DNA from: Bacteroidota bacterium
Lineage (GTDB): Bacteria; Bacteroidota; Bacteroidia; Bacteroidales; P3
Length of the DNA: 26,307 bases
Direction of reading: 5' to 3'
NCBI GenBank assembly: GCA_030540495.1
Contig: JAUNWC010000001.1
Coordinates: 1-26,307 of the forward strand
Shown piece by piece: positions 6,880 through 15,200 of the stretch (its first letter is position 1; every line of letters begins with the position of its first letter). The position numbers were made by a program, and so were the translations under genes. Under the pieces are notes generated by a model, which worked only from the letters and a program-made list of their open reading frames with translations, made no database searches and was not told where the DNA came from.

Positions 6880-9102
6880 ATGCGGGTGGTAAGGAAATTT
6901 GGCATTTTTTTATTGCTTGTGCTTGCTTTATCAAACATTGTCGCACAAGATACATTGCAAAGAAAAAAAGTTGCTCTTGTTCTCTCGGGCGGAGGAGCAA
7001 AGGGCAGTGCTCATATAGGTGCATTGAAAATTATAGAGCAAGCCGGCATACCAATAGATATGATTGTAGGCACATCTATGGGAGCGTTGATGGGAGGTTT
7101 GTATTCCATAGGCTATACTGCCGATATGTTAGATTCTTTGGTGAGAGTACAGGATTGGTCTTTTTTACTTTCCGATAGAGTGGATAACAAGGAACAATAT
7201 CTTTTGCAAAGAAAAAGAGGGAGTACCTATATTGGCTCTGTTGATGTTAATCATATAGGTAGATTTGCTTTGGGTAAGCCAGGCTTTATCAAAGGAAAAA
7301 ATCTTGCAAATCTTTTCTCTAAACTTACCTTAGGCTACCATGATAGCATAGATTTCAACTCTCTTCCTATTGCTTTTGCTTGTGTTGCTACTAATATGGT
7401 AGATTTTTCAGAAGTAGATTTTCATTCGGGCAATTTAGCAACGGCTATGCGAGCCTCTATGAGTATTCCTGCAGTTTTTACTCCCGTAAAATTGGGTGAT
7501 AAGATTTTGGTGGATGGAGGATTAAAAAACAATTTTCCTGTGGATATAGCCAAACAAATGGGAGCAGACATTATTATAGGCGTTACTGTACAAGATATGA
7601 ACAATCGCAAAGCAGAGGACTTTAATTCAACTCTTACCATAATCAATCAACTTATGGACGTAAATACAACGGCAAAGTTTGAAGAGAATAAAAATATGTG
7701 CGATGTTTTTATTCGTGTAAATGTGGAGGGATATTCTGCCGCAAGTTTCAATGCTCAGGCAATAGACACTCTTGTACAGAGAGGAGAAGACGCTGCAAGA
7801 ACTCATTTGCAAGAAATACTTGATTTAAAACAACAATTGGGTATGTCCTTGGATTCTATGGCAGAAAGAATTACTCCCTATCGTATGCTTAACCAAAAAA
7901 TAAGAATGAAGATAGGAGAAGTTACATTTAATCATATAGAGAAAAGAGACGAAGATTATTTGAGAGAAAGGTTCAATCTTAACAACAATGCTACCACCAC
8001 CTTGGATACCATAGAAAAGGCAATGACCTCTCTTAGAAGCACTTTGTTCTATAATGATGCATCTTATCAAATCAAATACTTAAAAAATGGTTATGGAATA
8101 GATATATCAAGCGAGGGAAAGAAAACGGCAGAATTGTTTTTGGGTATAAGATTTGACAACGAAGAGCAAGTATCCATGCAAGTGGAAGGAGAGGCTCCTG
8201 TTAATTTCTTGTTTCCTATGATGTTGAAAACCACTTTGCGCTTGGGTAAAAGGAGTATGTTCAATGTACAATCTAATTTTGATATTTGGAGAATGTATTC
8301 CGTAAATTTGTCTTATATGTTTAGACATCAGGATTTGAATATTTATTACCATGCCGACAGAGACCTTAATCCCGACTATCAACAACATCAAGTCAATTTC
8401 TCCTTTGCCAATGTAAATCTTAGAAACTTTCTTCTTAATGCTTTTTTGCGATGGGATTATTTTATGTATTCTAATTTGTTGTACGGCAAGAAGTCAAACG
8501 CTGTTTATTTGCCCACCTCCCATCTTTGGTCTTATCATATCAAAATAGGATTTGACGACAGAGATAAGGAATATTTTGCCACTATGGGAGGAATTCGTTA
8601 TATGGAATATGCTTTATATACAGATAATTTTTATCAATACAACGAGCATGCTCCGTTGCATACTTTTTCCTATAAATTTATGGAAACCTTTGATTTAAAG
8701 CATAATTGGTTTTTCTCTCCTATGTTCTATGGAAGAAGTATTTATGGTGAAGATATGCCAACAGTACTTTCCAACTGCATAGGTGGAGAATATTTTTCTC
8801 ACTATGTAGAACAACAACTTCCTTTTGCCGGAGTGGATAACTTGGAGATAATAGAAAAAAACTTTATTGCCTTAGATTTGCAATTAAGAAAACAATTATG
8901 GAAAAACAATTATTTTACTTTTGCTTATGCTATGGGATATAAGGATGATAAACTTCAACATTTGTTCTCCTCTTCTCCTCTTTGGGGCGTAAGGCTTTCT
9001 TATAGTTACAACTCTATTATAGGTCCGGTGGGAGCCTCTATGGGCTACTCCAACAGAACAAAAGAGCCATATCTTTTTATAAATATAGGTTATGAATTCT
9101 AA
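6880..9102 (+). CDS. Patatin-like phospholipase fused to a POTRA/Omp85-like barrel (PlpD-like, type Vd architecture)
   Basis: 740 aa. Signal peptide; GGGAKG, GTSMG (catalytic Ser) and DGG motifs; C-terminal beta-strands ending INIGYEF. Confidence 0.88.
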   Translation: MRVVRKFGIFLLLVLALSNIVAQDTLQRKKVALVLSGGGAKGSAHIGALKIIEQAGIPIDMIVGTSMGALMGGLYSIGYTADMLDSLVRVQDWSFLLSDRVDNKEQYLLQRKRGSTYIGSVDVNHIGRFALGKPGFIKGKNLANLFSKLTLGYHDSIDFNSLPIAFACVATNMVDFSEVDFHSGNLATAMRASMSIPAVFTPVKLGDKILVDGGLKNNFPVDIAKQMGADIIIGVTVQDMNNRKAEDFNSTLTIINQLMDVNTTAKFEENKNMCDVFIRVNVEGYSAASFNAQAIDTLVQRGEDAARTHLQEILDLKQQLGMSLDSMAERITPYRMLNQKIRMKIGEVTFNHIEKRDEDYLRERFNLNNNATTTLDTIEKAMTSLRSTLFYNDASYQIKYLKNGYGIDISSEGKKTAELFLGIRFDNEEQVSMQVEGEAPVNFLFPMMLKTTLRLGKRSMFNVQSNFDIWRMYSVNLSYMFRHQDLNIYYHADRDLNPDYQQHQVNFSFANVNLRNFLLNAFLRWDYFMYSNLLYGKKSNAVYLPTSHLWSYHIKIGFDDRDKEYFATMGGIRYMEYALYTDNFYQYNEHAPLHTFSYKFMETFDLKHNWFFSPMFYGRSIYGEDMPTVLSNCIGGEYFSHYVEQQLPFAGVDNLEIIEKNFIALDLQLRKQLWKNNYFTFAYAMGYKDDKLQHLFSSSPLWGVRLSYSYNSIIGPVGASMGYSNRTKEPYLFINIGYEF

Positions 9103-9122
9103 TTTTCCCACAAATATAGAAA

Positions 9123-9155
9123 TGCAAAAAAAACATAATATTTATATTTTTTGCA
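9123..9155 (+). terminator. Weak AT-rich hairpin after the patatin gene, possible terminator
   Basis: TGCAAAAAA (9123-9131) pairs with TTTTTTGCA (9147-9155). Low GC and a large loop. Confidence 0.3.
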
Positions 9156-9220
9156 ATAAAACAATATCTTCGTAGTCCTATATAAATAATTGTAATTTAG
9201 TTAGCAAAACAAGGTAGTAA

Positions 9221-9240
9221 AATACCTAAAAGTAGGTATT
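9221..9240. promoter_or_regulatory. Perfect inverted repeat, candidate operator
   Basis: AATACCTA-AAAG-TAGGTATT overlaps the expected -33 position of the promoter below. Confidence 0.4.
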
Positions 9241-9269
9241 GTAGCATAAAAGAAAGAGTAGTAACTTTG
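9238..9269 (+). promoter_or_regulatory. Sigma-A promoter of the beta-barrel gene
   Basis: TAACTTTG at 9262-9269, with a degenerate ATTG at 9238-9241 (20-nt spacer). Confidence 0.6.
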
Positions 9270-9335
9270 CAAAATAAAAGAAGTAATAACACTAAGAAAT
9301 TTAAAATTGATTTATTAATATAAAATGTTTAAGAA

Positions 9336-10001
9336 ATGAAAAGATTTTTAGTAATGACTATGATGGTCGTAATAATAGCTATAAGTGGCTATTCACAAGA
9401 AAGTAATGTAAAACGTCATAATTTTGGTATAGGAATCTCCTCCTCCTTATCCTCTTCTACAAATAAATTCTTAAAACACATTGGCAATAATACTTTTGAA
9501 GGAAATTTCGGCAAGATAGATAAGAATTTTGATTTAAACCTATCGTTTCTTTACGAATACAATGTTAGCAAAAATATAACCATAGGAGTGGCTCCCACAT
9601 ACAGAGAGAGCAGGGCTGAAATTAATTATCAATATGAAAGTAGCCTGTTTGGAGAAACAACAGAGACTATCTATGATATAGAAGTTCCTTTGTTTGTAGA
9701 TTACAAATTTTCAGTAATGGAAAAGAACAAGTTGTTTGCCGGAGTAGGTTTTTCGGGCTTGTTTAATATAAACACCGATTCAGAGGAAATTGCAACAAAA
9801 AATACATTCTCTCCTTATATGCTTTTCCGTTTGGGATTTGATGTCTATGGAAAACACAGAATACAATTTCTTATGCAATATAGATGTAACCTTTCGGCAA
9901 ATACTTATTATAATGGCATAGATTACAATATGTTCCCTCATATACAAAAAGAGTATTTTAAAGTAAATACTTTTGATGTAGGAGTAAATTTCTTTTTCTA
10001 A
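9336..10001 (+). CDS. Outer-membrane beta-barrel (porin-like) protein
   Basis: 221 aa. Signal peptide, amphipathic strands (LSFLYEYN, IEVPLFVDYKF) and a C-terminal Phe (FDVGVNFFF). Confidence 0.75.
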   Translation: MKRFLVMTMMVVIIAISGYSQESNVKRHNFGIGISSSLSSSTNKFLKHIGNNTFEGNFGKIDKNFDLNLSFLYEYNVSKNITIGVAPTYRESRAEINYQYESSLFGETTETIYDIEVPLFVDYKFSVMEKNKLFAGVGFSGLFNINTDSEEIATKNTFSPYMLFRLGFDVYGKHRIQFLMQYRCNLSANTYYNGIDYNMFPHIQKEYFKVNTFDVGVNFFF

Positions 10002-10013
10002 AAAGAGAAAAGT

Positions 10014-10126
10014 ATAAGTATTATAAGTTAGCATAGGTTACAGCCACAGGCTGTTTTATAGGACGCATAAGCGTATGACATAATTTAAGTTTTCTTACAC
10101 TCCTATCTTAACCTATGCTAACTTAT
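10014..10126. repeat. Extragenic palindromic element, copy A (REP/REPIN- or MITE-like)
   Basis: Perfect 18-bp inverted repeat ATAAGTTAGCATAGGTTA (10023-10040) / TAACCTATGCTAACTTAT (10109-10126). It encloses the small hairpins ACAGCC-ACA-GGCTGT and ACGC-ATAA-GCGT. Confidence 0.8.
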
Positions 10127-10156
10127 TTTAACCCATTCCCAAAAAATAAAAATTAC

Positions 10157-10175
10157 AATTTTTTGTCAAAAAATT
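10157..10175. promoter_or_regulatory. Inverted repeat abutting the tnaA -33 box, candidate regulator site
   Basis: AATTTTTTG-T-CAAAAAATT. Perfect but low complexity. Confidence 0.3.
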
Positions 10176-10206
10176 TGGTAGTTATAAGTATTTTGTTATA
10201 AATTTG
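10174..10206 (+). promoter_or_regulatory. Sigma-A promoter of tnaA
   Basis: TTTG (10174-10177), 21 nt, TAAATTTG (10199-10206). Predicted TSS ~10213, giving a ~185-nt leader. Confidence 0.75.
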
Positions 10207-10231
10207 CAAAAAAGGATAATCATTATATCTG

Positions 10232-10306
10232 ATGGAAGAAAAATTACATATAAGCGTAACTAATCCCTATTTGAATATAAAGAAAAGGGATAGTTTCTTT
10301 ATGTAA
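10232..10306 (+). CDS. Putative 24-aa leader peptide MEEKLHISVTNPYLNIKKRDSFFM upstream of tnaA
   Basis: Hand-translated ATG...TAA, not in the ORF track. Lies within the predicted leader, with a local resemblance to E. coli TnaC. The start context is weak (C at -3). Confidence 0.35.
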   Translation: MEEKLHISVTNPYLNIKKRDSFFM

Positions 10307-10350
10307 TCTTTCTGAGGGCTAAGGCATACTCTGTCTTAGTTTTCTTTATT
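10237..10350 (+). promoter_or_regulatory. Structured tnaA leader: long hairpin plus terminator-like hairpin (candidate attenuator)
   Basis: 10237-10250 pairs with 10300-10313 (13/14). 10259-10268 pairs with 10286-10294 (one bulge). CTAAGGCA-TACTC-TGTCTTAG (10319-10339) is followed by TTTTCTTTATTTT. Confidence 0.5.
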
Positions 10351-10397
10351 TTCAATTAAGACAATTTTTTCTTTATTAATCATAAAAATTTTTTATT

Positions 10398-11774
10398 ATG
10401 GAATTACCATTTGCAGAAAGTTGGAAAATTAAAATGGTGGAACCTATAAGAAAATCCACTAAAGAACAAAGAGAACAATGGCTTAAAGAAGCCCATTACA
10501 ATGTATTTCAATTGAAGAGTGAGCAGGTTTATATTGACCTTTTGACAGACTCTGGAACAGGAGCAATGTCTCAGGAGCAATGGGCTGCTATGATGTTAGG
10601 AGATGAATCATACGCTGGAGCAACCTCGTTCTATAAATTTGAAAGTACAATAAAAAGAATTTTTGGTTTGGATTATGTTATTCCTACCCACCAAGGTCGT
10701 GCTGCAGAAAATGTTTTGTTTTCTTATCTTGTAAAAGAAGGTAACGTTATTCCTGGCAATGCTCACTTTGACACAACCAAAGGACATATAGAATCTCGTC
10801 ATGCTTTTGCTATAGACGTAACCATACCTGAGGCTAATGATACTCAACTTGAATTGCCTTTTAAGGGAAATGTTTCCATAGAGTTGTTGAAAAAAGTGTT
10901 GGAAGAGAATAAAGGCAACGTACCTTTCTTTGTGCTTACAGTAACCAACAATACTAAGGGCGGACAACCTGTAAGTATGCAAAACATAAAAGAAACTTGT
11001 GAGGTTTGTCATTCTTACAATGTTCCTGTGGTTATGGACTCTGCTCGTTTTGCCGAAAATGCTTATTTTATCAAAACAAGAGAGGAGGGATACAAAGAAA
11101 AGACAATAAAAGAAATTGTTAAGGAAATGTATTCATACGTTGATGCTGCCACAATGTCTTGCAAAAAAGATGCAATAGTAAATATGGGAGGATTTATTGC
11201 TATGCGTAACAAAGAATGGTATGAGGGTTGTAAATTGTTCTGCATACCTTTTGAGGGTTATGTAACATATGGCGGTTTGAACGGCAGAGACCTTAATGCT
11301 ATAGCAGTAGGTTTGGACGAGAATACAGAGTTTGATATGCTTGAAACTCGTATTAAGCAAGTTGAGTATTTAGCAAAGAAACTTGACGAATATGGCATAC
11401 CTTACCAAAGACCTGCAGGCGGACATGCTATATTTGTGGATGCAGATAGAGTTTTAGACCAAATACCAAAGGAGGAATTTCCAGGACAAACTCTTACTTG
11501 TGAATTGTATTTGGAGGCAGGAATACGTGCTTGCGAAATAGGATATATGCTTGCCGACAGAGACCCTGTAACAAGAGAGAATCGTTTTGGAGGAATGGAT
11601 TTGCTTAGACTTTGCATACCAAGGAGAGTTTATACCAACAACCATATGGATGTAATTGCCGCTGCTTTGAAAAATGTTTATGACCGCAGACACGAAATCA
11701 AAAGAGGCGTTGCCATAGAGTGGGAAGCACCTTTGATGAGACACTTTACCGTCCAACTAAAAAGATTAGGATAA
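10398..11774 (+). CDS. tnaA: Tryptophanase (tryptophan indole-lyase, PLP-dependent)
   Basis: 458 aa. IDLLTDSGT, GDESYAG, PTHQGRAAE and MSCKKD (PLP Lys). Residues that distinguish tryptophanase from tyrosine phenol-lyase are the tryptophanase type: FDTT (Asp), CEIG (Ile) and RHFT (His). Confidence 0.95.
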   Translation: MELPFAESWKIKMVEPIRKSTKEQREQWLKEAHYNVFQLKSEQVYIDLLTDSGTGAMSQEQWAAMMLGDESYAGATSFYKFESTIKRIFGLDYVIPTHQGRAAENVLFSYLVKEGNVIPGNAHFDTTKGHIESRHAFAIDVTIPEANDTQLELPFKGNVSIELLKKVLEENKGNVPFFVLTVTNNTKGGQPVSMQNIKETCEVCHSYNVPVVMDSARFAENAYFIKTREEGYKEKTIKEIVKEMYSYVDAATMSCKKDAIVNMGGFIAMRNKEWYEGCKLFCIPFEGYVTYGGLNGRDLNAIAVGLDENTEFDMLETRIKQVEYLAKKLDEYGIPYQRPAGGHAIFVDADRVLDQIPKEEFPGQTLTCELYLEAGIRACEIGYMLADRDPVTRENRFGGMDLLRLCIPRRVYTNNHMDVIAAALKNVYDRRHEIKRGVAIEWEAPLMRHFTVQLKRLG

Positions 11775-11795
11775 TATTTATTTTAAACTACTTAC

Positions 11796-11835
11796 AATAA
11801 GTGGCAAGTTCAAAGAACTTGCCACTTATTTCTTT
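11796..11835 (+). terminator. Intrinsic terminator of tnaA
   Basis: AATAAGTGGCAAGTTC-AAA-GAACTTGCCACTTATT, a 16-bp perfect stem followed by TCTTT, ~20 nt after the stop. Confidence 0.88.
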
Positions 11836-11838
11836 GAT

Positions 11839-12095
11839 ATAAGTTTTATAAGTTGTAATAGGTTAGCATAGGTTGGAGGCTAAGCCTCCTATAAGTTAGC
11901 ATAAGTTGTAATAAGTTAGTATAGGAGGCAAAGCCGTTATATTTTACTATACGCTTATGTGTCTCCTATAATAACCTATGCTAACTTATAGGAGCCAAAG
12001 GCTCCAACTTATAATAACCTATTAGGAGGCACAGCCTCAAACCTACCGTAACCTATTACAACCTATAAAACAACCTGTGGTTGCAACTTATAAAA
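11839..12095. repeat. Extragenic palindromic element, copy B (~257 bp nested inverted repeat)
   Basis: 11843-11874 vs 12040-12071 match 28/32 as an inverted repeat. 11886-11907 vs 11973-11994 match 21/22. 11844-11855 vs 12084-12095 match 12/12. Built from 10-bp-phased ATA(A/G)GTT units and triloop hairpins. Confidence 0.85.
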
Positions 12096-12132
12096 GAAAA
12101 ATGGACAACTCTTTTCCAAAGAGTTGTCCATT
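12091..12132 (-). terminator. Intrinsic terminator of the T9SS adhesin gene
   Basis: AATGGACAACTCTTT-TCC-AAAGAGTTGTCCATT, a 15-bp perfect stem. TAAAAGAAA on its left gives a U-tract on the minus strand. Confidence 0.85.
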
Positions 12133-12151
12133 AAAATTTAGTTTATCGTTT

Positions 12152-12289
12152 GGGCTATGCCCTATAAAATCACCCTGTGGGTGCAGCCTGAGGCTGTTCT
12201 ATAAAACGCTTAAGCGTATGTATTTTATAATGCTTTGCCCGTAGAAAACCTCTTAAATGGCTCTGCCCTATAAGACAGGCTAAGCCTGT
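12152..12289. repeat. Chain of small hairpins related to copies A and B (copy C)
   Basis: GGGC-TAT-GCCC, CACCC-TGT-GGGTG, CAGCC-TGA-GGCTG, ACGC-TTAA-GCGT and ACAGGC-TAA-GCCTGT. 12184-12220 closely resembles 10041-10077. Confidence 0.75.
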
Positions 12290-15200
12290 TTGATAAGTTT
12301 TTCTGTTCTTATAGTATTAGCAGTTTGTACTCTTATGTAATAAACTCCGCTTGCAAGATTGTCTGTCTCTACTTCCATAGAATCAACACCTTGTGGTAGA
12401 ACCTTAGAAGAAATTACTCTTCCTTGTTGGTCGGTGATGATTATGGTTGCTTGCTCGTTTAAGCCATTGACTTTCAAAGTTGCATTAGCCTTTGTAGGGT
12501 TAGGGTATAGACTTATGGTTAAGCCCTCTGCTATTTCTGCTATGCCAGAGTTTGCTACAAGAGTTAGGTTATATACTTGGTCGCAACCATACTCGTCCTC
12601 TTCTGTTACGGAGTAAGAGCCGTAAGCCGTGTAGGTTTCGCCGTGGTAAGTATAAGGGAACTCGCTTGAAGAAAGTGTAACCTCTTCGTTTATAGGAGTG
12701 TTCTCTGGTCTAACATAAAGGTTTATTCTAAAGTTAGTATCGCAATCTCCGTTTTGTCCCTCAACTGTAAGATAATACAAATCTGTTGTAGTGTAAGTTT
12801 GTCCGCGGAAGGTAAAACTTTCTCCGAAACAAATAGTATCTTCTACTGTTGCAATAACTGTGGTGCAAGGCTCATCTTCATCCACAAGGGTTGTGAAATA
12901 TTGCTCTGAGCCATAAACTGTTCCGTTGGCTGTGGTTACAAATGCTTTGTACATATAATAAGTATTTGCAGTTAAGCCACTTAGATTATAAGTGAATGTA
13001 TTGCCTGCATCGGTAGAAGTTACTTGAGTATAAGTACCTCCGTAAGCAGTTTTCCACTCAAAACCTTTGGCGGTTATGGTTTGGTTGCCCGCTGAGGTTA
13101 CCTCTCCGTTAAGAGTAACAGAAGTTTGAGCAACAGAAGTTGCTGCATTGGTTACTACTGTTGGGTTGATAGGGTCGGAGGTTGTGTTGCCCTCGTTACT
13201 AATAACCACATTGTCCAAATATACTCCATAACCATCGTGGCAAGCGGCAACAAATGCTATTTGATAAGTTGTGCTTGTGTTAGGTAGGTCTATGCTATTT
13301 GACTGAGAAGTAGATTTGGTTATGTTTTGTTCTGACATGCTTGGTCCGTGAGCGGCTAATAATGTCCATTCTCCCGTTGCACTTGTTCTATAATAAACAT
13401 ATAGAGAATCCTCACTTGTGTTCCAACTACAAGTCTCATATTCGTAAGAAAGATTTGGAGTGGTAAGCGTGGTCATATCCAATACTGGAGAAATCAAACG
13501 AGTAGAACCTGTGGTATAGTGTCTGTAAGCAACGTGGTTGTTTGTAGAATAATCATAGGATATTTCCCAATTTGTTATACCAGATACGGTTTGACTTGTC
13601 CAACAACCCAAATTACTTGTAGTCAATGTTTCAAAATCCTCTGTATAAGGAAAGTCTGTAATAGCAGAACACTCTGTGCGGAAAGTAGTAACATCTGAAG
13701 TCAATTCTACTCCGTCCTCGCAAATAGCCTTAATATATAGGCTGTATTCTGAGGAATGGTTAAGGTCGGTAATTGTTGCATTCCAAGAATTTGCTCCTGT
13801 TGTAGAAGGAACGGCTGTGGCTTGAGTATATTCACTTTCGGAGTTTAGTTTGTAGTAGATTTCAAAATCATCACCTGAGGAAGTCCAACTAACATTTGCT
13901 TGGTCGGCACTTGCAGTTACTGTTACGTTATCTGGACGCGTGCAAGAAGGAATAAGGTTCAAAGTTACATCATCCACATGCATAATAGTATTGGAGTAAG
14001 AAGAAGAATTCTTTATAGCAATATAAGAACCTGTGCCTGTGTAAGAAGATAAATCTACTTCATAGAACGTGTATTCAGTATTCAAAGTCATGGAAGAAAC
14101 CTCAGTGAAAGTTGTAGCGTCCATAGGATTTGTCATAACTCCTACTGATAATGTAGCAGTGTAATTATAAGGTCCTCTTGCAAAGAAGGAAAGTTGCAAA
14201 GTGTTTATAGGCAAAGCCTCAGTATCTATTTGAGGAAGTACTCCTATATCTCCGCTATTGCCATAGTATAATGAATAAGAACCATAGTGAGCATAAGATG
14301 AGTTATAAGAATATGGATATCCTATGCTTGGTCTTTGCCAACAAGCAGGCAATTCATTGTATAGAGTTCCGGCAGTGTTGTTTGTCTCAAAGTCCCAAGT
14401 TTGAGGAACATCGCTAATCAAAGCACAAGCGGTGGTAAATTGGAAAGTTTCTGAAGCATATGTATTGTTATCTGAGGTGCAAAGGTAAGAAACATACCAA
14501 TCATAAGTGGTGCTTGCCTCTAAGCCTGAAAGAGTATAAACTCCTGTTGCATCAAGATAAGCATTCTCTATGGAGTCAAAGTCAGTAGCAGAAGTCTCCT
14601 TGTAATGAATAGTTATGGCTGTTGCTGTTGGACCATTCCATTTAAGGTCTATACTTGAAGCAGTAGGGTTGATAGCAAGCAAGGATGTTGGAGCAGAGCA
14701 ATCAGGTAGTTCTTCTACTTTTACATCATCAAGATACCATAACCAATAAGCATTGTTGACAACATGACGGAAAGCAATATATCCTGTCTCTGCCTCTCCC
14801 AAATCTACTTGGTCAAAATTCACTCTGTATTTGTGCCAAGTAGTATCTCCATTAAGAGTAGCGGTGCTAACAGAATCTACCATAATAAATGTACTTGCAT
14901 CTGTTGGGTCGGTTACATAACCTATTTCCAAACGACCAGAAGAAGTGGTAATGCTCTCTGGTTTTGTCCAAAATTCAACAGAAAGTTGATTTAACTCAGT
15001 GCTAAATTCTGGCAAAACAGCAATGGTTGGAGTTGCTATCTGTGAATAGAAGTCCATACCTTTGGAAGATACATGACCGCTATAACTTGAAGTATTTACA
15101 CAAGGGAAAGTTTTTCCGTTTTCTGTTCTGCTATTGATAAATGACCAGCAAACAGGTCTTGCATACTGTTCTATTTCTTCAAAGTCCATTGTATAAGGTA

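Follow-up and report, generated by a model that had tools for sequence, protein, structure and literature searches.

A conserved leader ORF upstream of tryptophanase in Bacteroidales, a candidate arrest peptide with no detectable sequence relationship to TnaC

SpeFL senses ornithine and stalls at its stop codon with ornithine lodged between the nascent chain and the exit tunnel, and the stalled ribosome prevents premature termination. This arrest peptide is encoded upstream of speF (cited in PMC8429421, ref. 23). For tryptophanase, the corresponding system is TnaC, the leader peptide of the enterobacterial tnaCAB operon (Pfam PF08053), which has 24 aa in Escherichia coli (b3707). Trp12, Ile15, and Asp16 line the L-Trp pocket of TnaC, arrest requires Trp12, Asp16, and Pro24, and it is abolished by any substitution of Trp12 and also by D16E (PMC8429421). 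A preliminary description of the locus studied here had named the same three required residues and had quoted a TnaC sequence that proved identical to that in NC_000913.3, which we took as the reference. In the literature that we searched, coverage of which was incomplete, we found no account of tnaA regulation outside Proteobacteria and, in keeping with the preliminary description, no paper on a tnaA leader peptide from Bacteroidota. Neither Pfam nor NCBIfam holds a model for the leader peptide that we describe, which belongs to an apparently undescribed Bacteroidales family with a ten-residue core.

The leader ORF and tnaA in the window

The DNA analyzed (the window) is a stretch of 26,307 nt from a Bacteroidota bacterium (assembly GCA_030540495.1, contig JAUNWC010000001.1). 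Its tnaA gene (positions 10398 to 11774, forward strand) encodes a tryptophanase of 458 aa that matches Pfam Beta_elim_lyase (E = 1.4e-81) and scores 904 bits on NCBIfam model NF053783 for tryptophanase TnaA, whose cut-off is 750, and much less on the model for tyrosine phenol-lyase. Translation and coordinates confirmed the upstream ORF first noticed by eye: it occupies positions 10232 to 10306 on the forward strand, consists of 24 codons plus TAA, and ends 91 nt before the tnaA start. The encoded peptide, P0001, has F-F-M as its C-terminal end and contains no Trp codon. A ten-codon core, Y13-L-N-I-K-K-R-D-S-F22 (10268 to 10297, forward strand), is conserved at the peptide level among relatives, and the codon for its last residue, F22, lies at 10295 to 10297.

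Upstream of the ORF, a −33 element, TTTG (10174 to 10177), and, 21 nt 3′ of it, a −7 box, TAAATTTG (TAnnTTTG; 10199 to 10206), can be read from the forward strand. Both belong to the established Bacteroidota promoter consensus, and they fit the start of transcription near 10213 that had been proposed for this locus. The −7 box and the core are 61 nt apart.

Folding of the 188-nt leader gives −40.5 kcal/mol, with a z score of −3.5 relative to shuffled sequences. A terminator-like hairpin with a 13-bp stem and a 5-nt loop (10314 to 10344, forward strand; dG, −13.6 kcal/mol) begins 7 nt past the leader stop codon, is found in both the minimum free energy (MFE) and centroid folds of the leader, and is followed directly by the T-rich tract TTTATTTTCA (10345 to 10354, forward strand). 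A smaller hairpin (10266 to 10292) lies within the core, where the pyrimidine-rich P-Y-L codons pair with the purine-rich K-R-D codons. An Rfam scan of positions 9000 to 12500 at an E value of ≤10 returned only noise, with no riboswitch or known leader. On the 3′ side, tnaA is followed by a predicted terminator with a 16-bp stem and a T run (11796 to 11830, forward strand) and by a second strong terminator-like hairpin on the reverse strand (12100 to 12132); the presence of such hairpins on both strands marks tnaA as an insulated single-gene unit, and in the window the gene is monocistronic. The upstream neighbors, a 740-aa patatin-like phospholipase fused to an Omp85-type barrel (6880 to 9102, forward strand) and a small outer-membrane beta-barrel protein (9336 to 10001, forward strand), are unrelated to tnaA.

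Conservation of the peptide and extent of the family

A survey of the regions upstream of tnaA orthologues for a conserved uORF had been suggested when the ORF was first noticed. We picked the tnaA loci of 40 relatives on TnaA homology alone; of the 29 that had enough upstream sequence, 28 carry a homologous short uORF at the corresponding position, and its core reads [FY]-L-N-I-K-x-[RL]-D-x-[FY]. Two of these loci (L017 and L018) have GTG rather than ATG at the exactly homologous codon, 12 codons 5′ of the core. Among the 27 distinct core sequences in this set, identity is 81 to 84% at codon positions 1 and 2 and 47% at position 3, and it is 34 to 37% in the 30 nt flanking the core on each side. 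Pairwise codon differences among the same 27 cores comprise 1,150 that are synonymous versus 613 that change the amino acid, mostly between F and Y, I and V, or R and L. In the larger family set described below (156 loci), wobble positions are near-random, and all six Leu codons and all six Arg codons are used. Freedom at third positions and use of every Leu and Arg codon indicate that selection acts on the peptide. The uORF is a real, conserved tnaA leader ORF, far beyond chance. Outside the core the peptides diverge freely, and the LHISVT stretch of P0001 is confined to its nearest few relatives. A second match to the core pattern in the genome from which the window comes (C206:3896) was rejected as a chance occurrence; it has no Arg and no short-ORF context.

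The codons for F-L-N-I-K-K can read as a near-perfect inverted repeat, an MFE meta-profile pairs the F-L codons with those for K-x-R in roughly half the loci, and a small in-core hairpin is present in the fold of the window, all of which would suit a conserved nucleic acid element, either a palindromic operator or an RNA hairpin, rather than a peptide. This reading is contradicted by the lack of mirror covariation: nucleotides 4 and 15 of the core occur as C-G in 52 loci, C-A in 45, T-G in 23, and T-A in 26, and nucleotides 6 and 13 are complementary in just 28 of 156 loci. Conservation follows a strict three-base periodicity, relatives retain both a start codon at the corresponding position and an in-frame stop, and R-D-x-[FY], which lies outside the repeat, is equally conserved. 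The absence of covariation and the conservation of R-D-x-[FY] identify the peptide as the conserved object; we therefore dropped the palindrome or hairpin reading of the core, to which we assign an almost negligible probability, and the hairpin at 10266 to 10292, which about half of the family shares, looks, given the lack of covariation, like a by-product of the amino acid sequence.

The family set comprises at least 156 nonredundant leader-tnaA loci from many Bacteroidales families; the collection was scanned with a narrow F...F form of the core pattern, the matches to which are a sample and not a census. The search pattern imposed N, K, and D and required F or Y at the first core position; L and I were left free. 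The core Leu (position 1, counted from the aromatic residue) is nevertheless present in 145 of 156 loci and the core Ile (position 3) in 142. The preliminary description had placed a Tyr at the position equivalent to Trp12 of TnaC; this holds for the window, and the family as a whole has Phe in 125 and Tyr in 31 of the 156 loci (80% and 20%), counts that cannot by themselves exclude Trp at that position because the pattern admitted only F or Y. The core is preceded by 12 to 14 variable residues (interquartile range [IQR]), and leaders are 24 to 28 aa long. The tail that follows the core has 0 residues in 32 loci, 1 in 13, 2 in 52, 3 in 25, and up to 13 in others, so that 122 of 156 loci have 0 to 3. 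All three stop codons are used, and Trp is present in just 3 of 146 leaders. This layout, with a conserved C-proximal segment behind a variable N terminus, encoded in cis upstream, is typical of the class of ligand-sensing arrest peptides that includes TnaC, SpeFL, and the Erm leaders.

A TAnnTTTG box lies within 120 nt 5′ of the core in 133 of 154 loci (86%), at a median distance of 57 nt (IQR, 51 to 61), and inside the leader-tnaA spacer in only 10 of 154 (6%). The box being common before the core and rare in the spacer, the leader is the first element of the tnaA transcript. Spacers are short, with a median of 86 nt. In a group of loci from Odoribacter, Alistipes, and related organisms (L313 to L345), the ATG lies about 8 nt past the −7 box, compared with about 25 nt in the window, which suggests that the leader mRNA there is leaderless or nearly so; the distance from the box to the core is about the same as elsewhere despite this short gap.

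The motif was present in 38 of 77 usable loci among the 80 closest TnaA loci of the species collection and in 47 of 80 loci around a Parabacteroides TnaA. Among cultured bacteria it is carried by Odoribacter laneus, Gabonibacter massiliensis, and isolates of Parabacteroides, and it is also found in Alistipes metagenome-assembled genomes. About half of the TnaA loci examined are without the motif, including those of Porphyromonas and Tannerella and many labeled Prevotella or Muribaculaceae. At several motif-less loci (L037 to L069 and L359 to L388), a neighboring gene lies close upstream instead, which suggests a different mode of tnaA control. When 251 Bacteroidales genomes, sampled evenly, were scanned with a degenerate DNA version of the core, 134 gave a match, many more than with the reversed control; a stricter core pattern, run on about 196 genomes from elsewhere in the phylum, matched only two sites, both of which look like chance. 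Within the samples searched, the family is restricted to the order Bacteroidales.

Relationship to TnaC and to other leader peptides

Seven identities between P0001 and TnaC had been counted by eye, and the best ungapped match between the two peptides does contain seven, a number reached by 105 of 20,000 shuffled sequences (0.5%). Five of these seven fall in the nonconserved N terminus, as the preliminary description had cautioned, and only YLNI/WFNI lies within the core. The stretch that supplies most of the identities, LHISVT in P0001 and LHICVT in TnaC, is not conserved even within the genus, and the resemblance does not stand as a sign of relatedness. Scoring of the peptide against Pfam, which had been proposed with the TnaC model in mind, gave no match even at an E value of ≤10, and when all six frames of the genome were searched with PF08053 (Tna_leader) at the same threshold, two weak matches appeared elsewhere and none at 10232 to 10306. 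There was likewise no match for P0001 in NCBIfam at an E value of ≤1, no TnaC chain among PDB chains searched with phmmer and with a 70-member family profile, and no BLASTP alignment of P0001 with E. coli TnaC at an E value of ≤100. When the family was aligned with E. coli TnaC by hhalign, FLNIK was set on WFNID with a probability of 0.5%. We confirmed that P0001 lacks a Trp codon and any equivalent of Asp16 or Pro24. The position equivalent to Asp16 is Lys in 28 of 28 TnaA-selected loci with the core (in the 156-locus set it was imposed by the pattern), and no conserved Pro was found as the last sense codon among family leaders. By every sequence test applied, then, the leader is not a member of the TnaC family, and it may still work like TnaC.

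Several features are indeed shared. Like TnaC, the Bacteroidales leader is a short ORF of similar length in the transcribed 5′ leader of a tryptophanase gene, it has an inner conserved segment in which an aromatic residue is followed by x-N-I, and it does not depend on Trp codons. The aromatic residue, the Ile, and the charged residue of the core stand at i, i + 3, and i + 4, the spacing of Trp12, Ile15, and Asp16; with respect to a binding pocket, this parallel offers only a lead. We propose a further likeness, namely, that nascent chain and free amino acid together would arrest the ribosome and relieve termination. Against these likenesses stand several differences: Trp12, Asp16, and Pro24 are absent; the core ends 0 to 13 residues before any of three stop codons; spacers are short and often carry a hairpin by the core; the leader also heads operons other than tna; and the family lies, in the samples searched, within a single order. 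The variable distance from core to stop and the use of all stop codons mean that arrest cannot be tied to RF2 at UGA.

A highly diverged but true TnaC, with the same ancestry and the same Trp pocket and arrest, would account for the shared gene context, for the similar size (23 residues with F22 in the P site versus 24), for the aromatic/Ile/charged spacing, for the placement of FLNIK on WFNID, and for seven ungapped identities that few shuffles attain. However, common ancestry left no trace in the PF08053, NCBIfam, or PDB searches or in the hhalign probability, all three residues required for arrest are missing, and the N-terminal identities are not kept in relatives. Moreover, 9 residues rather than 12 separate the aromatic residue from the final conserved position, and the spacing to the stop codon is variable. 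We consider descent from TnaC quite improbable. Of the earlier suggestion that this might be a stalling leader with different chemistry, the parts that held up are the conserved leader and an anatomy that fits a nascent-peptide sensor unlike TnaC; the kinship with TnaC did not.

Other described leaders can be compared in the same way. SpeFL resembles the Bacteroidales leader as a metabolite-sensing leader peptide of a catabolic or decarboxylating amino acid enzyme; it differs in having an unrelated sequence, a different ligand, and a host from a different phylum. The classical attenuators trpL, hisL, and pheL resemble the window in that a terminator-like hairpin and a T tract come after a short leader ORF. 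Unlike them, the Bacteroidales leader has no run of regulatory codons (Trp occurs in only the 3 of 146 leaders already mentioned), conserves amino acid sequence rather than codon identity, and stands before catabolic genes, and we found no conserved terminator/antiterminator pair in the family. As read from the alignments, the anatomy fits a nascent-peptide arrest element and not a codon-starvation attenuator.

Downstream genes, RNA structure, and a proposed mechanism

About 50 short-ORF core matches were found in 250 sampled Bacteroidales genomes, and 40 of them precede TnaA. Four core leaders, in two families, precede an indolepyruvate:ferredoxin oxidoreductase (IOR)-like protein, whose best model is TIGR03336 with a score under the equivalog cut-off; two precede an NDP-forming acyl-CoA synthetase; and one precedes TrpB2 (TrpB-like; NF009057, 572 bits, above the cut-off). 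At one locus (L304:782-7700, reverse strand), the operon behind the leader opens with a gene for a fused IorA/IorB-like protein (838 aa), continues with genes for a four-helix-bundle protein and an NDP-forming acyl-CoA synthetase, and closes with a class I/II aminotransferase gene; together these make up a complete arylpyruvate route from aromatic amino acid to arylacetate plus ATP, apparently under the leader. In another genome, the leader operon runs from acyl-CoA synthetase through tyrosine phenol-lyase and an ornithine-cyclodeaminase-family protein to an IOR-like protein. Within a leader-headed operon, a single 879-aa frame (L305:2681-5320, forward strand) contains two beta-eliminating-lyase halves, the C-terminal half being a tyrosine phenol-lyase (TIGR02618, 823 bits, above the cut-off) and the N-terminal half a weak Beta_elim_lyase match; the frame may be a tandem fusion or a decayed duplicate. 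On another contig (L146; G033:C298:1-2397), two leader copies 2.2 kb apart flank an acyl-CoA-synthetase gene. The second copy lies 45 nt from the contig end, and the tnaA gene of that genome starts at another contig end (L028); the layout there is probably leader, synthetase, leader, tnaA. Judged by the assigned functions, the theme common to the downstream genes is tryptophan and aromatic-amino-acid metabolism, and it is chiefly this shared theme that points to the nature of the signal: the ligand is most likely tryptophan or aromatic amino acids.

The range of downstream genes also bears on whether the peptide acts in cis at all. Conservation at the peptide level cannot by itself separate cis from trans action, and a small protein working in trans, as an enzyme partner or modulator or as a signaling peptide, would be conserved as well. 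However, the same peptide stands ahead of four unrelated enzyme types, which makes an enzyme-specific partner unlikely. Only ten residues are conserved between a variable N terminus and a variable tail, the ORF invariably occupies the 5′ leader with a constant spacing to the promoter, and the peptide matches no Pfam or NCBIfam family. We therefore judge action in trans to be very improbable.

Family leaders are more structured than shuffled sequences (mean z = −1.44; 29% below −2). Hairpins with a dG of ≤−8 that start between −6 and +25 nt from the last core codon were found in 39% of loci versus 10% of shuffles, and those with a dG of ≤−12 in the same zone were found in 17% versus 1%. A terminator in the strict sense (a hairpin with 5 or more T in 7) was found in 16% of family loci versus 4% of shuffles. 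The hairpin by the core in the window is among the strongest in the family and comes with a T tract; in the window and its three closest relatives, a hairpin and T run lie 39 to 53 nt 5′ of tnaA (39 to 41 nt in the three relatives). With 16% of loci passing the strict test, we dropped a universal intrinsic terminator and kept the terminator for the window. Erm-like translational attenuation was likewise rejected as a general mechanism, since the tnaA start is 0.51 unpaired versus 0.47 in shuffles, and a modeled stall shifted pairing of the start region by only 0.02 on average and did not open the start.

We then imposed a ribosome footprint of −12 to +15 in folding the window. With F22 or F23 in the P site, all 13 terminator pairs of the hairpin remained intact, and with the ribosome at the stop codon, three basal pairs were removed. 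Simple occlusion of the terminator by a core-stalled ribosome is thus not predicted in the window, and no alternative helix that would displace the hairpin formed when the footprint was imposed. Surveys of terminators and of start sequestration revealed no single expression platform common to the family. The spacers are T-rich, pyrimidine-rich, and G-poor (C/G = 1.64), a likeness to TnaC and the composition expected for Rho loading. With C exceeding G in the spacers and a rho homologue encoded in the genome from which the window comes, Rho-dependent termination, as in E. coli tna, is possible. The match to rho (G000:C206:4687-6532, reverse strand) is split into two neighboring segments that lie in different frames (467 and 145 bits), which would reflect a frameshift, an assembly error, or an inserted domain.

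On the strength of the conservation and anatomy described above, we consider it reasonably probable that the uORF encodes a new cis-acting, ligand-sensing arrest peptide that belongs to a Bacteroidales-wide family; the stalling and the ligand are what we infer. Transcription would start a few bases past the −7 box, and the ribosome would translate about 13 variable residues and then the core, which would fill the upper exit tunnel with its last residue (F22 in the window) at or near the P site, about 23 residues having been made when F22 occupies that site. Because the tail can be zero, any arrest would have to occur with the last core residue at or before the P site. If a small aromatic ligand were present, most likely free L-tryptophan, the nascent chain would block peptidyl transfer or release, and the ribosome would stall. 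The stalled ribosome would in turn alter the fate of the transcript just downstream: in the window, there would be less termination at the hairpin at 10314 to 10344 and its T tract, and RNA polymerase would read into tnaA; in other family members, the stall could act via other hairpins or Rho. The sign of this regulation is assumed because most of the targets are catabolic.

Alternatively, the leader might be translated and regulatory with a peptide that senses no ligand, control being exerted by general translation status, whether through the rate of ribosome arrival or release, the supply of charged tRNA for the core, or constitutive pausing that sets basal read-through. The terminator geometry of the window is more easily reconciled with a ribosome at the stop codon than with one stalled on the core, TrpB2 and catabolic genes have the leader in common, and the family has revealed no shared expression platform with a ligand logic, each of which such control would accommodate. 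It would explain less well why ten different residues are kept as amino acids while synonymous choice is free, when starvation attenuators have runs of one codon, and why the targets are united by tryptophan and aromatic metabolism rather than by the amino acids of the core. The N terminus, moreover, is fixed at 12 to 14 residues, which suggests a tunnel-length requirement. Control by translation status alone is, in our estimation, unlikely.

Some observations also run against the ligand-sensing arrest peptide that we favor. TrpB2 should convert indole into tryptophan, which is hard to square with simple tryptophan induction, and its place behind a leader warns that expression platforms may differ; the low frequency of strict terminators in the family and the roughly half of TnaA loci that have no motif count in the same direction. 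The wider claim, that the peptides form a new tunnel-sensing arrest class unrelated to TnaC and serve as a portable switch for tryptophanase, for the aminotransferase/indolepyruvate-oxidoreductase/acyl-CoA-synthetase pathway, for tyrosine phenol-lyase, and for TrpB2, and thus as the basis of a small leader-peptide regulon, strikes us as evenly balanced.

Indole and indole-3-acetate produced by gut Bacteroidales (as in the literature on BT1492) act on host barrier function, immunity, kidney, and vascular disease. If the proposal is correct, gut and rumen Bacteroidales would sense free tryptophan or aromatic amino acids inside the ribosome tunnel, and a leader-peptide regulon would govern the production of indole and arylacetates; the arylpyruvate-pathway operons behind the leader suggest that this regulon may be wider than tnaA. 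The leader would represent a second, independent family of tunnel amino acid sensors, a rare kind of sensor rebuilt from different residues. It would also offer a way to influence how much indole the microbiota makes and, for genetic work in Bacteroidales, a compact inducible switch.
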